NCBI GenBank assembly: GCA_964410185.1
Contig: CAYPFM010000002.1
Location: 6,047-70,046, forward strand
DNA length: 64,000 nucleotides
Source: an uncultured Candidatus Saccharibacteria bacterium
Lineage (GTDB): Bacteria; Patescibacteriota; Saccharimonadia; Saccharimonadales; JAUPVS01
Direction: 5' to 3'
The notes below the pieces were generated by a model that saw only the letters and a program-made list of their open reading frames with translations, ran no database searches and was not told where the DNA came from. Below, in pieces: positions 3,504 to 60,299 of the stretch; position 1 is the stretch's first letter; every line of letters begins with the position of its first letter. A program made the position numbers and the translations under genes.

Positions 3504-3511
3504 TACCGAAT

Positions 3512-3520
3512 AGTATATCA
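3512..3520 (-). promoter_or_regulatory. Extended -10 promoter of def-fmt
   Basis: The minus strand reads TGaTATACT. The ATG (3503) lies 8 nt downstream. Confidence 0.5.
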
Positions 3521-3535
3521 GATAGGTTCATTGGC

Positions 3536-3592
3536 TATAACCTCTGGCTGCGGCTTCGGCCTGTCGGCCTGCAGATGCAGCCAGAGGTTATA
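3536..3592 (-). repeat. Conserved-core hairpin repeat, copy R1 (core on + strand)
   Basis: A perfect 16-bp outer stem TATAACCTCTGGCTGC/GCAGCCAGAGGTTATA encloses the core GGCTTCGGCCTGTCGGCCTGCAGAT. Confidence 0.8.
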
Positions 3593-3659
3593 CCCAAGAA
3601 CCCCTCCGCACACCCTGGATAACAACACCCAAAGACTTAATTAGATGAACGTTCGGTAA

Positions 3660-3735
3660 GGGGCTGCTTGTTATGGAGTACTGCATCTGCAGACCCTTGA
3701 GGTCGAAGCCGCAGTGCGAGGTGACAAGCAGCCCC
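3660..3735 (-). repeat. Conserved-core hairpin repeat, copy R2 (core on - strand), abutting the priA stop codon
   Basis: Outer stem GGGGCTGCTTGT/ACAAGCAGCCCC. The core is CTGCATCTGCAG..GTCGAAGCCGCAG. The innermost stem is changed in a compensatory way (GACC/GGTC instead of GGCC/GGCC). Confidence 0.75.
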
Positions 3736-5670
3736 TTAGAGTAGGTTCAGCGGATCCAGGTCATGGGTCCAGTTGGCTGGCAGCAGGGGTAACACCTTCA
3801 GTAACTCCTTGCGATCCTTGGCCTTGATGACCAGTTGCCACTGGTATTTGCCACCGACTTTTTCGTAGAAGCTGGGGGTGGGGCCAATTACCTCGATGCG
3901 GAGGCCACTGGATTGGAGTTTGTCGACCAGTGTTTGGGCGGCAGACCGAGCGCTGGCTGAGGTGGCGCGGGCACAGCTGAGCTTGAGACAGTGATAGAAG
4001 GGCGGGAAGCCGTAGTCTTTTCTTTCTTTGAGTTGGTACTGGTAGAAGTCATCCCAATCTTGGGCGACGGCGGCCTTAATGGGCGGGCTGTCGGGGGCGT
4101 AGCTCTGGATGATGACGGTGCCACCGATGTGGCCGCGGCCGACACGGCCGATGACCTGGGTGAGTAGTTGGTAGGTTTGTTCTTCGGCGGTGTAGTCGGG
4201 GAAGTACAGCCCAGAGTCGGCCACCACTACGCCCACAAGAGTCAATCGGGGCAGGTCGAGCCCTTTAGCTAGCATCTGAGTGCCCACCAAGATGTCGACA
4301 TCACCACTGGTGACGGCCTGATAGTTTTGCTCCAGACTTTCGGATTTGAGGTTGTCGGTGTCGAAGCGTTGGATGCGAGCCTGAGGGAAGGTCTTGGCCA
4401 GTTCGGTGGTCAGTGACTTGGTGCCAACGCCTTTAAAGATCAGGTCGGTGCCCTGACAGACCGGGCAACTGCTGGGAACATTGTCGGTAAAGCCACAGGT
4501 ATGGCAGCGCAGGCGATGGTGGTCACCGTGGAAGGTCAGGGGCAGGTCGCAGTTGGGGCAGGTGGCCTGCCAGCCACAGGTCTGACAGAGTACCAACCGA
4601 GCCGTGCCGCGCCGGTTTAACAAGATGAGAATCTGTTGTTTGGCGTTCAGTGTCTTTTGTACCTCTGTTAGTAGCTTATTCGACAGGTGTGGGTGCGTCG
4701 AAAATTCGTCTCTGTCTTTGAGGTCGACCACGACGATGTTCTTGTCGGTGTGCTCTCCGGCCGGTCGATCAGTTAGGCGGATAATCGGCACCTTCTTGGC
4801 TTCGGCCAAGGCGTATTCACCCACCGGTGGAGTAGCTGTTCCCAATACCAGCCTGGCCTTATGCAGGTGAGCCAGCTGTGAGGCCACGCGCAAAGCCTGG
4901 TAGTACGGCGCCTGTTCCTGTTTGTAGGCGTTGTCGTGGGCTTCGTCGACGACAATCAGGCCGAGGTTCTTAACAGGAGTAAAAAGGGCTGAACGGGGCC
5001 CAATAATGACGACTGGCCCGGTGGCTTGCAAGATCTGCAGCCAAACTGTTCGTCGCTGGGCGGGCGAGAGCTGCGAGTGCACCACAATAACAGGGAAGGC
5101 CAGACTGTCACGAACGCGTTGCTCGAGCTGCGGGGTCAGGCCGATTTCGGGAGTTAACAGCATGACTGAACGCCCTTTTTGCAGCTCCTGCTGGGCCAGC
5201 TCAAGGTATACGCGGGTTTTACCGGTACCGGTGTCACCGTGGAGCAGGTAGGTACCAGGCTGGTTCATCTGCTGGACGGCTGCAGCCTGTTGCGGGATGA
5301 GGGGTGGCATTGGTGTGGGCTGCAGGCTGGCGCTGGGCGGGACGGCGTCGGCGATGTCACGCTTGCGGAGCAAGCTACTGGGTAGCAGGATTTGGGCCAG
5401 TATCCCCAAGGGAGCCGGGTAATAGTGGCGCAACCAATCGAGGAGGGCCAGGGTTTCGGTGGGGACCGGCTGGGTGGTGACGACTTTGTTGATCGGTTTG
5501 GTAGCGAAGGAGGGCTTGCCAACTTCTTTCAGCACAACGCCAACGACTGGCTTATTCCTCAGTGGAACGACCACGATTGAGCCCACTGGCAGCACATTAT
5601 CAGACAGGTAGGTGAGCGGTTCCTTCCCATGAAATTGCTGAGAGCTGACTAAAACCTCGTAGAAGTGCAT
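3736..5670 (-). CDS. priA: Primosomal protein N' (replication restart helicase PriA)
   Basis: Walker A GDTGTGKT, DEAH box VVDEAHD, and a Cys-rich zinc region CQTCGWQATCPNC..CHTCG..CPVC. ATG 5670 is preferred over TTG 5697 (see the TATAAT-N6-ATG feature). Confidence 0.9.
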   Translation of the reverse strand: MHFYEVLVSSQQFHGKEPLTYLSDNVLPVGSIVVVPLRNKPVVGVVLKEVGKPSFATKPINKVVTTQPVPTETLALLDWLRHYYPAPLGILAQILLPSSLLRKRDIADAVPPSASLQPTPMPPLIPQQAAAVQQMNQPGTYLLHGDTGTGKTRVYLELAQQELQKGRSVMLLTPEIGLTPQLEQRVRDSLAFPVIVVHSQLSPAQRRTVWLQILQATGPVVIIGPRSALFTPVKNLGLIVVDEAHDNAYKQEQAPYYQALRVASQLAHLHKARLVLGTATPPVGEYALAEAKKVPIIRLTDRPAGEHTDKNIVVVDLKDRDEFSTHPHLSNKLLTEVQKTLNAKQQILILLNRRGTARLVLCQTCGWQATCPNCDLPLTFHGDHHRLRCHTCGFTDNVPSSCPVCQGTDLIFKGVGTKSLTTELAKTFPQARIQRFDTDNLKSESLEQNYQAVTSGDVDILVGTQMLAKGLDLPRLTLVGVVVADSGLYFPDYTAEEQTYQLLTQVIGRVGRGHIGGTVIIQSYAPDSPPIKAAVAQDWDDFYQYQLKERKDYGFPPFYHCLKLSCARATSASARSAAQTLVDKLQSSGLRIEVIGPTPSFYEKVGGKYQWQLVIKAKDRKELLKVLPLLPANWTHDLDPLNLL

Positions 5671-6353: not shown

Positions 6354-6378
6354 AACCGGCTGGTGGGCCGGTTTTTTC
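6354..6378 (+). terminator. Intrinsic terminator after rpsU
   Basis: A 7-bp stem AACCGGC/GCCGGTT with loop TGGTGG, then TTTTTT. Confidence 0.7.
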
Positions 6379-6384
6379 ATGTCC

Positions 6385-6543
6385 TTTTTGCTTGCTATGG
6401 TTTTTGGAGCACGAGTTAACGAGTTTTTAAGAATTCAGATTAATAGAGTTAAGAATGTTAACAGAGGTGGAATTCTTACATAAGTTAATCTGAATTCTTA
6501 CCTTTTGGTTAAGTGGCGCTCCAAAAACCATAGTAGACAAAAA
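6385..6543 (+). mobile_element. MITE-like palindromic element, copy 1 (~159 bp)
   Basis: Terminal inverted repeats TTTTTGCTTGCTATGGTTTTTGGAGCAC / G(C)GCTCCAAAAACCATAG.AGACAAAAA. Subterminal IR ATTCAGATTAA / TTAATCTGAAT. The interior is AT-rich. No ORF. Confidence 0.7.
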
Positions 6544-9613: not shown

Positions 9614-9997
9614 ATGAATAAAAAGATTAAAATTGCCTTAATCGAAGATGACCAGGCTATTGTTCAGATGTATACCATGCGCTTTGGCTTTAGCGACGAC
9701 CTCGAGGTCAAAGTGGCCAACGACGGCGCCAGTGGTCTGGAACTGATTAAAAACTACCAGCCAGACGTTATTCTGCTGGATATGATGATGCCGACCATGA
9801 GCGGGGCGGAGATGCTCACGCAATTGCGGGCTCTGCCAAACGGCACCGACTACCGGGTTATTGCTCTGACAAACATGAAAGATGATGACATTATGGCCAG
9901 AATCAACAGATTGGGCGTGCAATATTACCTGGTAAAGGCCGAGATACCACCCGAGCAAATCGAGGCTCATATTCGCGAACTGGCTTCCAAAAACTAA
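9614..9997 (+). CDS. Stand-alone response-regulator receiver domain protein (CheY-like, 127 aa)
   Basis: Contains the acidic pocket IEDD, phospho-acceptor context VILLDMMMP, ALTN and a conserved Lys (YLVKA). No output domain. Confidence 0.85.
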   Translation: MNKKIKIALIEDDQAIVQMYTMRFGFSDDLEVKVANDGASGLELIKNYQPDVILLDMMMPTMSGAEMLTQLRALPNGTDYRVIALTNMKDDDIMARINRLGVQYYLVKAEIPPEQIEAHIRELASKN

Positions 9998-10036: not shown

Positions 10037-10065
10037 TTGTTTATATCTGTTATAACTACTATAAT
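10037..10065 (+). promoter_or_regulatory. Promoter of the giant sensor kinase gene
   Basis: TTGTTT-N17-TATAAT. It also contains TCTGTTATAAC (extended -10-like). Confidence 0.5.
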
Positions 10066-19563: not shown

Positions 19564-19583
19564 CAGCTACACACCCTAGGGGA

Positions 19584-19614
19584 AAGAACCGGCCGCTTGG
19601 TCGGTTCTTTTTTT
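19584..19614 (+). terminator. Intrinsic terminator after nrdJ
   Basis: AAGAACCGGC-CGCTTG-GTCGGTTCTT followed by TTTTTT. Confidence 0.75.
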
Positions 19615-35146: not shown

Positions 35147-35194
35147 CTTCTTGCAACGGCTTCGGCCTGGCGGCCTGCAGATGCAGATAAGAAG
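35147..35194 (+). repeat. Conserved-core hairpin repeat, copy R3
   Basis: CTTCTT..GCAACGGCTTCGGCCTGGCGGCCTGCAGATGCAG..AAGAAG, starting 12 nt after the stop of the 436-aa gene. Confidence 0.75.
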
Positions 35195-38742: not shown

Positions 38743-38924
38743 GACCGGCGGTTTCGTGACATTACTTTTTGCTTGCTATGGTTTTTGGAGCACGAGTTAA
38801 CGAGTATTTAATGATTCAGATTAACTTATTTAAGAAAGGTGAGCTAGGATTATTAACATTTTTAATCTGAATTCTTACCTTTTGGTTAAACGGTGCTCCA
38901 AAAACCATAGCAGCACTGGAGGAG
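38743..38924 (+). mobile_element. MITE-like palindromic element, copy 2 (plus a ~20-bp flank shared with copy 3)
   Basis: Same TIRs and subterminal IRs. From 38755 to 38921 it is base-for-base the reverse complement of 47732-47898 (checked by hand). Confidence 0.75.
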
Positions 38925-38961: not shown

Positions 38962-38990
38962 TTGACGGCGTGGGTCTAATCTGTTAATAT
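38962..38990 (+). promoter_or_regulatory. Promoter of rplU
   Basis: TTGACG-N17-TAATAT with a TGt extended -10. ATG 39003 would leave a ~6-nt leader. Confidence 0.6.
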
Positions 38991-39368: not shown

Positions 39369-40130
39369 ATGTCAGAGGTAATCGCGATACTAAACCAAAA
39401 GGGGGGCGTGGGCAAAACAACCACGGCTATTAATTTGGCTGCCTACCTGCAGAAAATGGGGAAGTCGGTGTTGCTGGTTGACCTCGATCCGCAAGGCAAC
39501 GCCACCAGCGGCCTCGGTCTCGACAAGCATAGCCAAGAGGGCGGCACCTACGAATTACTACTTGGGCAGATTGACCTTGGCCAAGCGGTCAAGCCGGTTC
39601 AGAATGGCGGCTTTTACATTGTGCCGACTAACGCCAATCTTGCCGCCGTTGAGGTGGAGCTGGTTAGTAAGCCGAACCGCGAGCAAGCCCTCAAGGACGC
39701 GCTCAAGCAGGCCACGTACGACTACATCCTAATTGATTGTCCGCCGGCGCTCAGCCTGCTCACTATCAACGCGCTGACGGCCGCGCACTACATGATTATT
39801 CCAGTCCAAGCCGAATACTATGCGCTCGAAGGACTTGGGCAGCTGTTGCAAGTCTTCCAACAGGTAAAGTCTAACCTCAACCCGGGCCTCGAAATTATGG
39901 GTGTGGTGGTGACCATGTTCGACAGCCGCACCAGCCTTTCGGAGCAGGTGTTAACAGAGGTCAAGAAGCATTTTAACGACAAGTTATTTACCACCATCAT
40001 CCCGCGCAATGTTCGGCTGGCGGAGGCACCGAGTTACGGTCAGCCGATTCTGCAACATGATAAATGGTCTAAGGGCGCTCGCGCCTATAAACAGCTTGCC
40101 AAGGAGGTAGTAGACTATGGCCAAAAGTAA
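39369..40130 (+). CDS. parA: Chromosome partitioning ATPase ParA/Soj
   Basis: Deviant Walker A NQKGGVGKTTT, plus DLDPQGNAT and IDCPPAL. Confidence 0.9.
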   Translation: MSEVIAILNQKGGVGKTTTAINLAAYLQKMGKSVLLVDLDPQGNATSGLGLDKHSQEGGTYELLLGQIDLGQAVKPVQNGGFYIVPTNANLAAVEVELVSKPNREQALKDALKQATYDYILIDCPPALSLLTINALTAAHYMIIPVQAEYYALEGLGQLLQVFQQVKSNLNPGLEIMGVVVTMFDSRTSLSEQVLTEVKKHFNDKLFTTIIPRNVRLAEAPSYGQPILQHDKWSKGARAYKQLAKEVVDYGQK

Positions 40131-40977
40131 AGCCGGCCTCGGCCGCGGTTTTGAAACCCTGATTCCAACCAACTTTGACAATTCTTTGTTGCTCGACGAG
40201 CAAGACCGGATACAAAAGTTGCTCATCACTGACATTAAGCCGGGCAAACAACAGCCGCGAACCGAGTTTGACGAGACCTTGCTCAAAGAGCTAGCCAGTT
40301 CAATCAAGCAACACGGTATCTTGCAGCCACTGATTGTCCGCAACGAAAGTGGCACCTATTACATCGTGGCTGGCGAACGCCGCTGGCGAGCCGCCCAACT
40401 AGCGGGCCTTAAGCATGTGCCAGCGATTGTGCGCAGCCTTGAAGAGCTCGAAGAGTTGGAGATGGCCTTGGTCGAAAACGTCCAACGCGAAGATCTGTCA
40501 CCACTCGATCAGGCGATGTCGATCCACCGGTTACTCCACCAGTTTAATTTGTCGCAAGAGGCAGTCGCTAACCGGCTGGGTAAAGCTGTGCCAACCGTTG
40601 GTAACATCGTGCGTTTGCTAAACCTGCCGCCCAAGGCCCAGGAAGCTTTGCGGGATGGCTTGATTACCGAGGGTCACGCTCGCGCCGTCTTAGCCCTTAA
40701 GGATAAGCCCGAAAAACAGACCGAACTACTCGAGCTGATTATTAAGAACAAGTGGACGGTGCGCCAGGCCGAACAATTTGTGGTGGCGACTCGTAAGGGC
40801 GCCCAAACCGAAGTCGCTCACAAACAGTTGGCTACCACCACGCCAGCGACCGAAAAACTCGGCAAGAAGCTCGGCACGCCCGTCACGATTCGACGAACCG
40901 CAAAGGGCGGGAAGCTCGAAATTGCTTTCAAGACCAACAAAGAACTAGACGATCTAATCAAAACCCTGAATAAGTAG
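40117..40977 (+). CDS. parB: Chromosome partitioning protein ParB/Spo0J
   Basis: ParB box GERRWRAA, LQPLIVR, and an HTH. Overlaps parA by 14 bp. Confidence 0.9.
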   Translation: MAKSKAGLGRGFETLIPTNFDNSLLLDEQDRIQKLLITDIKPGKQQPRTEFDETLLKELASSIKQHGILQPLIVRNESGTYYIVAGERRWRAAQLAGLKHVPAIVRSLEELEELEMALVENVQREDLSPLDQAMSIHRLLHQFNLSQEAVANRLGKAVPTVGNIVRLLNLPPKAQEALRDGLITEGHARAVLALKDKPEKQTELLELIIKNKWTVRQAEQFVVATRKGAQTEVAHKQLATTTPATEKLGKKLGTPVTIRRTAKGGKLEIAFKTNKELDDLIKTLNK

Positions 40978-47242: not shown

Positions 47243-47281
47243 ATAAACAAAAACCGCCCGTTCTGTACGAAAAGGCGGTTT
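47243..47281 (-). terminator. Intrinsic terminator after rpmE (upstream of prfA)
   Basis: The minus-strand RNA reads AAACCGCC-UUUUCGUACAGAACG-GGCGGUUU followed by UUGUUU. Confidence 0.65.
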
Positions 47282-47296
47282 AACGAGCTTAGGTAG

Positions 47297-47653: not shown

Positions 47654-47731
47654 AGTCAGGTGGCAATTATACACATCTGTTAGCGTTTGGTCAACAGGGG
47701 AGCGGAAGTTTTAAAACATTGTGCCAGCCTA

Positions 47732-47901
47732 GCTATGGTTTTTGGAGCACCGTTTAACCAAAAGGTAAGAATTCAGATTAAAAATGTTAATAATCCTAGC
47801 TCACCTTTCTTAAATAAGTTAATCTGAATCATTAAATACTCGTTAACTCGTGCTCCAAAAACCATAGCAAGCAAAAAGTAATGTCACGAAGCCGCTGCCG
47901 G
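47732..47901 (-). mobile_element. MITE-like palindromic element, copy 3 (an inverted, identical twin of copy 2)
   Basis: Its reverse complement reads GTGACATTACTTTTTGCTTGCTATGGTTTTTGGAGCACGAGTTAACGAGTATTTAATGATTCAGATTAA..., identical to copy 2. Confidence 0.75.
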
Positions 47902-47902
47902 C

Positions 47903-47931
47903 TTGGCAAACACTGCTCAATCTGTTACACT
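47903..47931 (+). promoter_or_regulatory. Promoter of rpsB-tsf
   Basis: TTGGCA-N17-TACACT with a TGt extended -10, leaving a ~110-nt leader before ATG 48047. Confidence 0.6.
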
Positions 47932-48046
47932 AGGTGAGTAATAAATTAAAGCAGTCTGGGATTCAGATCCTCCAACGCATAACCTGCCTCCAGGTGGCCG
48001 CGGCACCCAGATGAAGATCAAGGATCAAAAGAAAGGTTATAACACT

Positions 48047-48828: not shown

Positions 48829-49425
48829 ATGGCCGTATCAATCGAAGACATTAAGCGACTTAAGAATCTAACTGGTGTTGGTTTGACTGACGCCAAGGCT
48901 GCTCTCGACGCTGAAAATGGTGATTTTGACAAAGCCCTGGCTGCCATGCGCAAAAAAGGCCTGACCAAGGCCGAGAAGCGTGGTGAGCGCGAAGCCCGCG
49001 CCGGATTGATCGGTAACTACAACCACGATGGCCGCATCGGCGTCTTGGTAGAAGTAAACTGCGAAACCGACTTTGTGGCCCGCAACGAAATCTTCGTCGA
49101 CTTCGTTAAGGACGTGGCCATGCACATCGCGGCTTCTTCGCCGCAGTATGTCAGCATGGAAGACATTCCAGCCGAAGACCGCGACAAAGCTGCTAAAGAA
49201 TTTACCGAGAAGGCCAAGGCCGAAGGTAAGCCAGACAACATGCTCGACAAAATTGTTGACGGCATGCTCAAGAAGCACTTTGCCGAAAAGTGTCTGCTCG
49301 ACCAGCCCTTTGTAAAGAATCCCGACGTCACCGTTGGTGATTTCGTCAAAGAACACAATGCCAAGTTGGGTGAAAACATCGTAGTGCGCCGCTTTAACCG
49401 CATGGCGCTCGGCGAAATCAGCTAG
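48829..49425 (+). CDS. tsf: Elongation factor Ts (short form)
   Basis: UBA-like N-terminus IKRLKNLTGVGLTDAKAAL, plus VEVNCETDFVARNE. Confidence 0.92.
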   Translation: MAVSIEDIKRLKNLTGVGLTDAKAALDAENGDFDKALAAMRKKGLTKAEKRGEREARAGLIGNYNHDGRIGVLVEVNCETDFVARNEIFVDFVKDVAMHIAASSPQYVSMEDIPAEDRDKAAKEFTEKAKAEGKPDNMLDKIVDGMLKKHFAEKCLLDQPFVKNPDVTVGDFVKEHNAKLGENIVVRRFNRMALGEIS

Positions 49426-49500
49426 TTTTTGAACATAGCCTCGTACTACGTCCTCGCCCCTTACGGGCTGCGGATGTAGTACTCACCTATATTCAAAAAC
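49425..49500 (+). repeat. Long imperfect hairpin after tsf, related to R4 in its outer arm but with a different apex
   Basis: GTTTTTGAA.ATAGCCTC...GTACTAC..GCCC-CTTAC-GGGC..GTAGTAC...TTCAAAAAC. The 5' arm resembles the R4 arm GGTTTTGAGGCGTAGCCTC. Confidence 0.6.
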
Positions 49501-54861: not shown

Positions 54862-54873
54862 GCCACAATTGTC

Positions 54874-54882
54874 TGTTATAAT
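54874..54882 (+). promoter_or_regulatory. Extended -10 promoter of greA
   Basis: TGtTATAAT is a perfect extended -10. The leader is ~69 nt. Confidence 0.55.
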
Positions 54883-55416: not shown

Positions 55417-55568
55417 TTTTCTCTCCGCGCATTACTGCGTCGATTGTTCCAGTGCTCCTTCACCGTACGAGTACGTACGGCTCAGTCCGCGCTTCACAAT
55501 TTCCTTGTACTGCATCGGAGATAAAGCCTAGCTTTAGCAAAGGGAAATCTTTATACTAGGTAAGAATT

Positions 55569-57477: not shown

Positions 57478-57792
57478 ATGAAAGCAACCTTCAACAATCA
57501 AACCATCGCCGAGGCTGACAAAGCCGATTTAATTTACATCGAAGGGAACTGGTATTTCCCACCAGCTGCCGTGAAACAGGAGTTACTCGAAAAGAGTGAT
57601 ACCCCGTATACCTGTCCCTGGAAAGGCGTCTGCCAATACTTTAACGTTGTGGTCGGTGACCAAACTGCCAAAGACTGCGCTTGGTCTTACCCCGAGCCGC
57701 TCGAAACAGCCATCGAAATCGTCAAAAACAGCTCCGGCAAAGACTTCAGTAACTACGTCGCGTTCTACCAGCAAGTCACCGTCGGCGAATAA
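57478..57792 (+). CDS. DUF427 domain-containing protein
   Basis: IYIEGNWYFPPAAV...CPWKGVCQYFNV matches the DUF427 pattern as I recall it. Confidence 0.7.
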   Translation: MKATFNNQTIAEADKADLIYIEGNWYFPPAAVKQELLEKSDTPYTCPWKGVCQYFNVVVGDQTAKDCAWSYPEPLETAIEIVKNSSGKDFSNYVAFYQQVTVGE

Positions 57793-57868
57793 GGTTTTGA
57801 GGCGTAGCCTCCTGTTGCGGCTTCGGCCTGGCGGCCTGCAGATGCAACAGCAAACTACGCTCAAAACC
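57793..57868 (+). repeat. Conserved-core hairpin repeat, copy R4, immediately after the DUF427 stop
   Basis: Outer stems GGTTTTGAG.CGTAG/CTACGCTCAAAACC and CTGTTGC/GCAACAG surround the core GGCTTCGGCCTGGCGGCCTGCAGAT. Confidence 0.8.
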
Positions 57869-57910
57869 ACGTCAACGGAACTGTTGTGTTGAAATCGTAA
57901 CGTGGCTAAT

Positions 57911-57996
57911 AAGAGGTCTTAGCAATAGTAAGCACTGCATCTACAGGCCGCCAGGCCGAAGCCGCAGTGTGCACTATTGACTAAGACCTCTTTTTG
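57911..57996 (+). repeat. Conserved-core hairpin repeat, copy R5 (core inverted), followed by a T-run and so a probable intrinsic terminator
   Basis: Outer stem AAGAGGTCTTAG.AATAGT/ACTATT.ACTAAGACCTCTT. Core is GCACTGCATCTACAGGCCGCCAGGCCGAAGCCGCAGTGTGC. TTTTT follows. Confidence 0.75.
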
Positions 57997-58041
57997 GGGC
58001 ATGATTACACTATAGAGACCAACTAAGGAGGACTAACGTAT

Positions 58042-58593: not shown

Positions 58594-58697
58594 CAATACC
58601 TAAATCAGTCCCGGTCTCTCTAAACCACTCAACCGCCTCGCAAGGGGCGGTTGTTTTATCTATGGTACATTTCCGACTGCACCTATCCTGCAATCCA

Positions 58698-58840
58698 TTT
58701 TCTTTGCTATGGTTTTTGGAGCACGAGTTAATCAGTTTTTAAGAATTCAGATTAAATAACTTCAGAATGTTATTAACTTAGTTAATCTGAATTCTTACCT
58801 TTTGGTTAAATGGTGCTCCAAAAACCATAGCAGGCAAAAA
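58698..58840 (+). mobile_element. MITE-like palindromic element, copy 4 (shorter centre)
   Basis: GCTATGGTTTTTGGAGCACGAGTTAA...TTAATCTGAATTCTTACCTTTTGGTTAAATGGTGCTCCAAAAACCATAGCAGGCAAAAA. The centre is 26 bp. Confidence 0.7.
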
Positions 58841-59393: not shown

Positions 59394-60299
59394 ATGGCAA
59401 AAAAATCTACTACCAAAAAACCTGTTAAGAAATCAGTCAAATCAGCTGCGTCAACCAGCAAGACCAGTAAGGCCACGAAGGCTGTGCAGCCTGCCAAGGT
59501 CGCCACGAAGGTAAAGGTCAAAAAGCCGATTACTTTCGCTAGCCTCAATAAATGGAATCTTGTGATGGCCGCGTTGCACTTTATCCAGGGTGTGGCCGTG
59601 GTTATTCTCAGCACCAACGCCAGCTTCCCAGTCACCACCAGCTACCTCACACTCGATACGCTTGCTTCCAAGAGCGGCAGTCCAGTTTTGGTGTCGGCTA
59701 GTCGACACCTTGCCGATATAAACCTGGCCTACCTCGTGGCGGCCTTTTTCTTTATATCCGCTGCAGCCCATCTGTTTATCGCCACTGTTTATCGTAAGAC
59801 CTACGAAGCTGACCTCAAGCGTGGTGTTAACAAGGCACGTTGGTTTGAATACAGCATCAGTGCCAGCATTATGATGATCGCCATCGCCATGTTGAGCGGT
59901 GTCTACGATGTATCCAGTTTATTGATGATCTTCGCACTCGACTTCGTTATGAACATGATGGGACTAGTTATGGAAGTGCACAACCAGACCACCAAAAAGA
60001 CCAGCTGGCTGAGCTACATTATTGGTTGTATTGCCGGCATCGTGCCATGGATTGTCTTTGCTATCTACGTAGCTGGCGCTCGCAACTACGGCAGTGGCCA
60101 GATTCCAAGCTTCGTCTATTGGATCTACTTGAGTATGTTCATCTTCTTCAGTAGCTTTGCCGTTAATATGTTCTTGCAGTATCGCAAGATTGGTAAGTGG
60201 GCCGACTACCTGTACGGCGAACGCGTATACATGATCTTGAGTTTAGTCGCTAAGTCGCTGCTCGCCTGGCAGGTCTTCTTTGGAGCCTTGCGACCGTAA
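59394..60299 (+). CDS. Heliorhodopsin with ~45-aa Lys-rich N-terminal extension
   Basis: Seven TM helices. It matches remembered HeR-48C12 blocks: ALHFIQ (H23 region), AAAHLF (H80), RWFEYSISASIMMIAIA (counterion Glu), GCIAGIVPWIV, FFSSFAVNMFLQY and GERVYMILSLVAKSLLAWQVF (Schiff-base Lys). Confidence 0.85.
   Translation: MAKKSTTKKPVKKSVKSAASTSKTSKATKAVQPAKVATKVKVKKPITFASLNKWNLVMAALHFIQGVAVVILSTNASFPVTTSYLTLDTLASKSGSPVLVSASRHLADINLAYLVAAFFFISAAAHLFIATVYRKTYEADLKRGVNKARWFEYSISASIMMIAIAMLSGVYDVSSLLMIFALDFVMNMMGLVMEVHNQTTKKTSWLSYIIGCIAGIVPWIVFAIYVAGARNYGSGQIPSFVYWIYLSMFIFFSSFAVNMFLQYRKIGKWADYLYGERVYMILSLVAKSLLAWQVFFGALRP

Follow-up and report, generated by a model that had tools for sequence, protein, structure and literature searches.

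A dispersed family of hairpins with a conserved, irregular tip at gene ends in Saccharimonadales genomes

The locus and its hairpins

The window, by which we mean the whole 64-kb stretch of DNA that was analysed, includes the genes priA, def, tsf and greA, a gene encoding a 436-aa protein, and genes for DUF427 and DUF308 proteins. It also contains a heliorhodopsin gene, a parA/parB pair and a single ORF of 4179 aa with many FG-GAP and Kelch repeats, the product of which is presumably a giant surface protein. The cumulative GC skew climbs over most of the window, and the parA/parB pair suggests that the window may lie near a replication origin.

Six hairpins with a common tip lie at gene boundaries in the window, i.e. 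about one per 10 kb (Table 1). Five of these (R1 to R5) had been picked out in a sequence-only reading of the window, and all five proved to be genuine copies where it placed them. The core GCGGCTTCGGCCTG[GT]CGGCCTGCAGATGC is matched four times in the window with no more than one mismatch (R1, R3, R4 and R5), while the number expected by chance, from 100 dinucleotide shuffles of the window, is zero. The covariance-model scan that the same reading had proposed brought out a sixth copy, directly after tsf; even when run without its speed filters it gave no seventh copy in the window.

R2, which begins at the stop codon of priA, and R1 together make a convergent doublet in which R2 comes first. 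R1 is antisense to its flanking genes and lies immediately upstream of the def promoter TGnTATACT. A second convergent doublet opens with R4, directly past the DUF427 stop codon, and is completed by R5; the outer stem of R5 and the T-run that follows read as an intrinsic terminator on the + strand. The motif TTGACT in the right arm of R5 is a possible -35 element for the promoter of the DUF308 gene. R3, in which the first base of the core is A and not G, is found 11 nt past the stop codon of the 436-aa gene.

R1, R2, R4 and R5 fold as long hairpins, with free energies of -40 to -53 kcal/mol and z-scores of -4.5 to -8.5. The proposal that the outer arms are always complementary is upheld for these four and fails for R3, which folds to an unconvincing -16.7 kcal/mol (z-score in Table 1) because its arms have decayed; the ortholog of R3 in a relative (L132) is intact and well formed.

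The hairpin that begins at the tsf stop codon had been set apart from the others as having a different apex, and this was mistaken. It is recovered by a second model built from the copies of other species alone (45 bits, E 3.5e-14) as well as by the A-type model, and its tip, ACGUCCUCG-GCCC...GGGC-U-GCGGAUGU, has the U.C opposition, bulged U and 4-bp apical stem of the other copies. Its core is intermediate between the A and B types described below. The likeness of its outer arms to those of R4 was correctly seen, and the cores of the two differ.

Table 1. Hairpins and other features of the window, with positions in nucleotides from its first base; positions in related loci are marked as such.
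Feature	Position	Strand	Remarks
R1 hairpin, A-type core 3550-3578	3531..3597	+	covariance model 74 bits; inverted repeat
R2 hairpin, A-type core 3683-3712, apical stem GACC/GGTC	3660..3735	-	63.5 bits
R3, near-intact core 35156-35184, arms decayed	35147..35194	+	51.8 bits; fold z -0.54
tsf copy, variant core ACGUCCUCG-GCCC/GGGC-CUGCGGAUGU	49425..49500	+	59 bits (A-type model)
R4 hairpin, A-type core 57817-57845	57793..57868	+	75.9 bits
R5 hairpin, A-type core 57937-57965, CTGTAG variant	57911..57996	-	67.5 bits
MITE-like family, four copies	6393-6535, 38775-38912, 47731-47870 (reverse), 58706-58831		conserved imperfect terminal inverted repeats GCTATGGTTTTTGGAGCAC...
Promoter-like motif ATCTGTTATAAT	3506-3520(-), 38974-38988, 47928-47942, 54866-54882, 10040-10056		also in L141, L142, L146
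Likeness of CTGAAYCTNYTNTAA and TGAACCTATCTGATATACT	3736-3752 and 3508-3527; L141 780-801 and 880-897; L146 9975-9995
Canonical short U-tract terminators	19583-19612, 6355-6380, 47250-47285, 58630-58655
greA hairpin	55417-55530		apex CCGTACGAGTACGTACGG
ORF of 4179 aa	21215-33754		many FG-GAP and Kelch repeats
Heliorhodopsin gene	59394-60299
parA/parB pair	39369-40977

Architecture and covariation of the conserved unit

An alignment of 33 distinct copies, taken as the core with 14 nt on either side, was readily obtained. Conservation is not confined to the 30-nt core, and the conserved architecture spans about 57 nt. At the base there is a 5-bp outer stem, often similar to CAWTAG/CTAWTG, above which lie a 4x4 internal loop that is pyrimidine-rich on its 5′ side (CYUC in about 30 of the 33 copies) and a variable 5-bp stem. 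The apical 29-33 nt are nearly invariant and comprise an irregular core helix and an apical stem-loop. The core helix has the order G-C, C-G, G.U, G.A, C-G, U-A, U.C, C-G and then a bulged U, and the tip is formed by an apical stem of 4 bp (range 4-7 bp) and a U-N-N-C tetraloop. Each of the three oppositions, G.U, G.A and U.C, is kept in 32 or 33 of the 33 copies, and so is the bulged U. Beyond the conserved unit there is a further stem peculiar to each locus, which changes fast yet stays complementary, and which extends the stem to 25-35 bp. The whole hairpins are roughly 57-100 nt long; these lengths are approximate, since boundaries taken from minimum free energy folds over-extend.

When the 33 paralogs are placed on this structure 90.5% of the cells are paired, and 12 of 20 pairs have changed on both sides. 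The covariation score is 0.408 compared with 0.124 in shuffled alignments, none of 500 shuffles reaching the observed value, and it falls to 0.11 or less when the pairing partners are slid. Covariation is strong in the paralogs and also in the six orthologs of R1, and the earlier view of a repeat family under structural constraint is borne out. The compensatory change to GACC/GGTC in the apical stem of R2, noted before, is real; it recurs in four related loci (L124, L126, L143 and L145), and GCCC/GGGC in the tsf copy is a further variant beside the usual GGCC/GGCC and some longer stems. Since the apical stem itself covaries, it is the folded form that is preserved and not the sequence of the duplex.

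A second core type, B, with the sequence GUAGAGUCCUCG...CUGCGGAUAC, occurs in relatives. It differs from the A type by two compensatory double substitutions, by closure of the G.A opposition into a U-A pair, and by a 3-nt AGA bulge, and it retains the G.U and U.C oppositions and the bulged U.

Copies in related genomes

A first scan of a genome collection was made with a loose pattern, and nearly all of the matches listed were due to chance, lying inside genes of GC-rich genomes; at least three were true copies, and among the matches listed these were all in one Saccharimonadales MAG (L093, L097). A tighter core pattern matched 22 metagenome contigs and none of the viral contigs. The 33 further distinct copies found outside the window come from these 22 contigs and from one MAG labelled Candidatus Saccharimonadales. 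Several of the contigs that carry the family are syntenic with the window. Homologs of the proteins encoded in the window are labelled Saccharimonadales, Saccharibacteria or Patescibacteria, and the window is accordingly assigned to a Saccharimonadales genome. No match to the R4 hairpin was found by BLAST in phage and plasmid records. Rfam 15 gave no match in the window at the gathering score, and at E values up to 10 the region 57780-58010 matched generic miRNA hairpins alone, far under threshold.

The family is dense in the clade of the window. No A-type copy was found in the 41 kb scanned of L146 and L147, nor in 61.7 kb of syntenic DNA in L148-L150. L147 has one B-type copy, and at the corresponding spot in L146 there is a degenerate hairpin that is recognised by eye and scored by neither model; the B-type model found no copy in L146, L148 or L149. 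In the literature searched, such repeats have not been reported for Saccharibacteria (Candidatus Saccharimonadota) or for other bacteria of the candidate phyla radiation (CPR). The family is real, apparently undescribed and structurally unusual, although small intergenic palindromic repeats are familiar as a kind.

Position, orientation and strand asymmetry

Nearly all copies are intergenic and lie at gene ends. In about 18 of them the core is 11-33 nt past the stop codon of the upstream gene, so that the stem starts at the stop codon; for the window, the first copies had been described as starting 0-12 nt past a stop codon, and they do. In L122 a tRNA-Val gene, in tandem with one for tRNA-Phe, ends exactly where the copy at 479-552 starts, and the same flank and core sequence is found again in L133 and L135. 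The position is therefore independent of translation, and the elements mark the ends of RNA genes too. Other copies (R1 and its orthologs, R5, L131, L124:279 and L097) are 38-79 nt upstream of a start codon, where they immediately precede extended -10 promoters of the type common in the genome, TCTGTTATAAT, with the core antisense to the gene in question. The promoter-like motif ATCTGTTATAAT, also an extended -10, recurs 15-30 nt upstream of many start codons, and reverse-oriented hairpins adjoin it.

Of the 24 copies that can be classified, ten run antisense to the genes beside them. For single copies between genes of like direction the count is about eight independent loci sense and four antisense, without significant orientation bias, and a few copies lie between divergent genes (L097, L134). 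Doublets occur as eight pairs at six independent loci (R1/R2 and orthologs, R4/R5, and pairs in L123, L124, L138 and L143), every one convergent, with the covariance-model hits 48-91 nt apart; no common spacer motif was seen inside them. The order of core-forward and then core-inverted that had been noted at the two paired loci of the window thus applies to both R1/R2 and R4/R5. U-tracts follow few of the 43 copies, and in the window R5 alone, as had been remarked; canonical short terminators with U-tracts are present elsewhere in the window.

The two strands of the element are not equivalent. In 35 of 39 copies the more stable fold is that of the strand opposite the 'forward' core (mean -44.8 against -38.1 kcal/mol), whatever the direction of the neighbouring genes, and the loops on that strand are mostly GNNA; the core alone adds almost nothing to the difference (-21 against -22 kcal/mol). 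Mismatches were counted over 14 columns to either side of the core, a stretch that takes in both stems and the 4x4 loop. On the forward strand there are 51 A.C-type but 6 G.T-type oppositions (p 6e-10), and 60 pyrimidine-pyrimidine but 12 purine-purine oppositions; on the complementary strand these turn into wobble pairs and purine-purine oppositions. The A.C over G.T bias is the same in kind where the forward strand is sense (26 against 2) and where it is antisense (15 against 2), and is therefore a property of the element and not of transcription. A bias due to replication does not fit either, since the doublets hold both orientations. Either the folding of the complementary strand is selected everywhere, or that strand sits single-stranded and gathers C-to-T changes, in which case the asymmetry could be a mutational signature instead of the result of selection. 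On either reading, a single-stranded stage that is specific to one strand is suggested for the element itself.

The position of many copies just past a stop codon raises the possibility, already put forward in the sequence-only reading, that the hairpins act in cis as 3′-UTR RNA. In that case the tip would be recognised by an RNase or an RNA-binding protein, through which the 3′ ends of mRNAs, their stability or termination would be set. The hairpins would then be a regulatory motif of the host and not a repeat element. Strong covariation with invariant non-Watson-Crick features, and a core that is conserved in place between species, would be expected of such an RNA, and the copy at the tRNA gene 3′ end suits a signal for the end of a transcript. 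Yet that copy does not follow a reading frame, and the antisense copies include R1, which is conserved in six genomes. The copies between divergent genes, the lack of an Rfam match and the absence of the family from syntenic DNA of less close relatives also count against it. Moreover, in sense copies it is the strand opposite the mRNA that folds better, the bias tracks the element and not transcription, and a strand-specific single-stranded stage is hard to square with a motif of the sense strand. We consider this explanation disfavoured, though not negligible.

Inheritance, loss and exchange of copies

R1 is found between priA and def in six genomes in which def is 83-100% identical. Its core is invariant, while the arms are alignable but much diverged, with compensatory changes in 17 of 33 stem pairs. 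R2, R3 and R5 also have orthologs; that of R5 in L137 shows compensatory changes, and R2 is absent from L141 and L145. In L146, where def is 85% identical, the gap between priA and def is 8 nt, and a def promoter of the ATCTGTTATAAT type overlaps the last codons and stop of priA. The corresponding spacer in L147 is 54 nt and holds just a half-remnant of a B-type core; this sequence, GGCCGAGGACTCTGC at 9961-9975, corresponds in reverse complement to the 5′ half of that core, and is probably what is left of a decayed R1-like copy. L097, L148, L149 and L150 have no copy after tsf, and the R4/R5 doublet is absent in L148-L150.

The sequence at the priA stop, CTGAAYCTNYTNTAA, resembles that directly after R1, TGAACCTATCTGATATACT, and element-free L146 has a single overlapping copy. 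This is suggestive, and no more, of a 12-15-nt duplication that parted a once overlapping stop codon and promoter. In a systematic search of the flanks for direct repeats, target-site duplications were at chance level, 2 of 43 copies reaching p<0.05. A GGCGAATAAG/GGCTAATAAG repeat precedes R4 and R5 (p 0.04), and as a target duplication it too is suggestive only. No direct sign of recent movement, such as an insertion polymorphism between strains, was seen.

Cores and arms are found in different combinations. The R2 core is of A type in the window and in the L143 ortholog, but of B type in the L142 and L126 orthologs with an identical apical stem-loop. The orthologous copies of L125 (A type) and L121 (B type) have nearly identical outer arms and apex, and R4 and the tsf copy have arms but not core type in common. 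These mosaics confirm the proposed modularity of arms and cores, and the presence of different cores on common arms points to exchange between copies.

In several copies the gene-side arm overlaps older functional sequence: for L145 and L126 this is the end of the S21 coding region, with its last codons, for L128 some 12 nt of a coding region, and for R5 the likely -35 element of the DUF308 promoter. The opposite arm must then have been matched to the local sequence, as could have been achieved by hairpin-templated copying.

A core unit of roughly 30-60 nt that inserts into the loops of pre-existing terminator hairpins, another suggestion of the sequence-only reading, would explain why the arms are local and the centre common. 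The mosaics are consistent with this, and the outer stems of R5, L093:5177 and L138:2243 are regular, with A and U tracts on either side like the canonical terminators of the genome. Furthermore the hairpin after the S21 gene is coreless in L146 and core-bearing in L145 and L126, with arms that are weakly similar. However, other orthologous sites that are free of the element have no hairpin (priA|def in L146 and tsf|frr in L148 and L150). Besides the core, the conserved region takes in the 5-bp stem, the internal loop with its pyrimidine-rich side and the CAWTAG-like outer stem; in the R1 orthologs the arms, which can still be aligned, have diverged where they stand, through compensatory changes; and most outer stems lack U-tracts. 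Comparison of orthologous sites thus provides one coreless hairpin in favour of insertion and several empty sites against it, and we regard such an origin as unlikely.

Comparison with known repeats

The closest parallel is with REP, BIME and REPIN sequences. REPs are extragenic, mostly downstream of genes, and occur as singletons and as inverted dimers with spacers of 20-100 bp, one type of dimer being preferred; their subfamilies differ by complementary changes in the stem (Di Nocera et al. 2013, PMC3733652). The window family likewise consists of short imperfect palindromes with conserved mismatches and bulges. They are extragenic and mainly downstream of ORFs, with the exceptions between divergent genes in L097 and L134, and they form inverted dimers of one type, all convergent and with a similar spacing. 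Abundance specific to a lineage, vertical persistence, and subfamilies related by complementary stem changes are further likenesses.

There are also differences. The stem of a REP is 6-13 bp long and conserved throughout. In the window family, by contrast, it is the tip of the hairpin that is conserved, the stems are extended by locus-specific arms to 25-35 bp, and the density is about one copy per 10 kb. On size and copy number the comparison is less clear-cut: REP units measure 20-40 bp and are present in many copies per genome, and the window family has a core of 29-33 nt, a conserved architecture of about 57 nt, hairpins of 57-100 nt and six copies in the 64 kb of the window. The unpaired GTAG/CGTC tag of REPs is absent; there is a loose CAWTAG-like preference in columns 1-5, usually paired with the other arm. 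A RAYT transposase (Y1/HUH, Y1_Tnp) was not found in about 25 ORFs of the window and three element-flanking ORFs, and the host belongs to Candidatus Saccharimonadota. With no tag, no RAYT found among these ORFs, and the conserved part at the tip of a longer stem, the family is REP-like and is not REP as defined.

Like MITEs, the elements are small, non-coding, dispersed and intergenic, and able to form long hairpins. In MITEs, the MITE-like family of the window included, it is the terminal inverted repeats that are conserved and the centre that varies, whereas the hairpin family does the reverse. The earlier description of it as the opposite of a normal MITE is apt, given that the outer arms differ by locus and target duplications are at chance level.

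The attC sites of integrons, too, are imperfect hairpins that come immediately past an ORF. They are recognised in folded, single-stranded form, and extrahelical bases determine which strand is chosen, a feature that recalls the strand polarity of the window family. However, attC conserves the base of the hairpin (the R and L boxes) and varies at the tip, and the hairpins described here flank housekeeping genes and not cassettes, with no integrase seen.

Intrinsic terminators share a stable hairpin at or near the stop codon and, in R5 and a few relatives, the U-tract, but most copies have no U-tract, their stems are far longer, the irregular tip is common to the loci, and reverse-oriented copies are conserved. 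It is very improbable that the family consists of ordinary intrinsic terminators alike by descent, or of duplex sites for a nucleoid or regulatory protein: the copies do lie at gene boundaries beside promoters and R5 has its U-tract, but compensatory changes in the apical stem show that intrastrand pairing is kept and not a linear duplex sequence, T-runs follow just a few of 43 copies while canonical short terminators exist elsewhere in the window, and identical tips on unrelated stems are unexpected if the hairpins arose independently.

The tip was also compared with SRP RNA domain IV, domain V of group II introns, SECIS elements of bacteria, DNA uptake sequences and the repeats of invertible promoters, none of which fits. 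These likenesses were dropped because the bulged base falls on the wrong strand, the stops are TAA or TAG, the density is one per 10 kb, the copies are mostly singletons, and there is no match in Rfam.

A possible origin and function

We propose, with a probability of about one half, that the family is a lineage-specific, REP-like dispersed palindromic element of a subclade of Saccharimonadales, the folded tip of which is recognised by a trans-acting protein. The tip is nearly invariant in paralogs and in orthologs with diverged stems, and from this we infer a trans-acting factor that recognises its folded form. A protein-binding site had been the third suggestion for the hairpins. It is the most plausible account of the invariant tip provided that the folded form is what is bound; covariation of the apical stem disfavours the version with a site in duplex DNA.

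On this proposal copies would have accumulated at gene boundaries, past stop codons, past a tRNA gene and just upstream of promoters, and once in place would have been inherited vertically, singly or as convergent doublets. The folded tip would be the recognition site of the protein, as REP hairpins are for the RAYT nuclease, and the protein would handle one strand, the complement of the 'forward' core, in single-stranded form. Gene conversion between copies could maintain and shuffle the core variants. As a side effect or a co-opted role, a transcribed copy would place a very stable stem-loop at the gene end of the transcript, and by analogy with REPs this would probably act, at the RNA level, as a barrier to 3′-exonucleases or as a partial insulator, and not as a canonical terminator.

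Some observations sit less easily with a mobile repeat. The copy density is modest, at six in the window, and neither RAYT, HUH nor any other transposase was recognised with Pfam among the ORFs searched, i.e. about 25 in the window and the three that flank elements in related loci. A core kept in place across six species needs either constraint at the level of the host or ongoing homogenisation, and is not predicted for a purely selfish element.

A more specific and rather speculative form of the proposal, which we think unlikely, is that the hairpins are substrates of an unrecognised strand-specific enzyme of CPR bacteria. Such an enzyme would recognise the irregular folded tip in DNA that is single-stranded, and through it the elements would be spread, converted or maintained, making them a replicator of a new type akin to REP and RAYT. 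The stems would then be specific to each locus through rebuilding from flanking DNA (hairpin-templated synthesis) or through nesting in existing hairpins.

Saccharimonadia genomes are about 1 Mb in size and non-coding DNA is scarce in them. In genomes so small one would not expect a repeat family to occupy as much of the longer intergenic spacers as this one does. Recognition of the tip by a dedicated protein, if it occurs, would make this the first REP-like system of element and enzyme in the candidate phyla radiation within the literature searched, and would offer a handle on how reduced genomes organise their gene ends. The combination of an invariant tip and fast-evolving complementary stems also provides a clean natural case of compensatory or hairpin-templated evolution, and the two covariance models could be used to flag the clade in metagenomes and to improve the annotation of transcript boundaries.

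Other repeats and features

A separate family of MITE-like repeats of about 140 nt has four copies in the window with 84% mean column identity and a variable centre. Three of the four occupy intergenic regions that in relatives (L126, L131 and L097) hold a core hairpin.

CTGCAG is not avoided in the window (21 observed, 17 expected), and avoidance of this restriction site was set aside.

Directly past greA, beginning AGC TAG TTTT..., there is a hairpin of about 110 nt with an unrelated apex. It was rejected as a member of the family since neither covariance model matches it.

LAGLIDADG homing-endonuclease ORFs are absent from the window and are found in L146 (18711-19232) and L147 (18393-18905), where they probably lie inside an rRNA intron.
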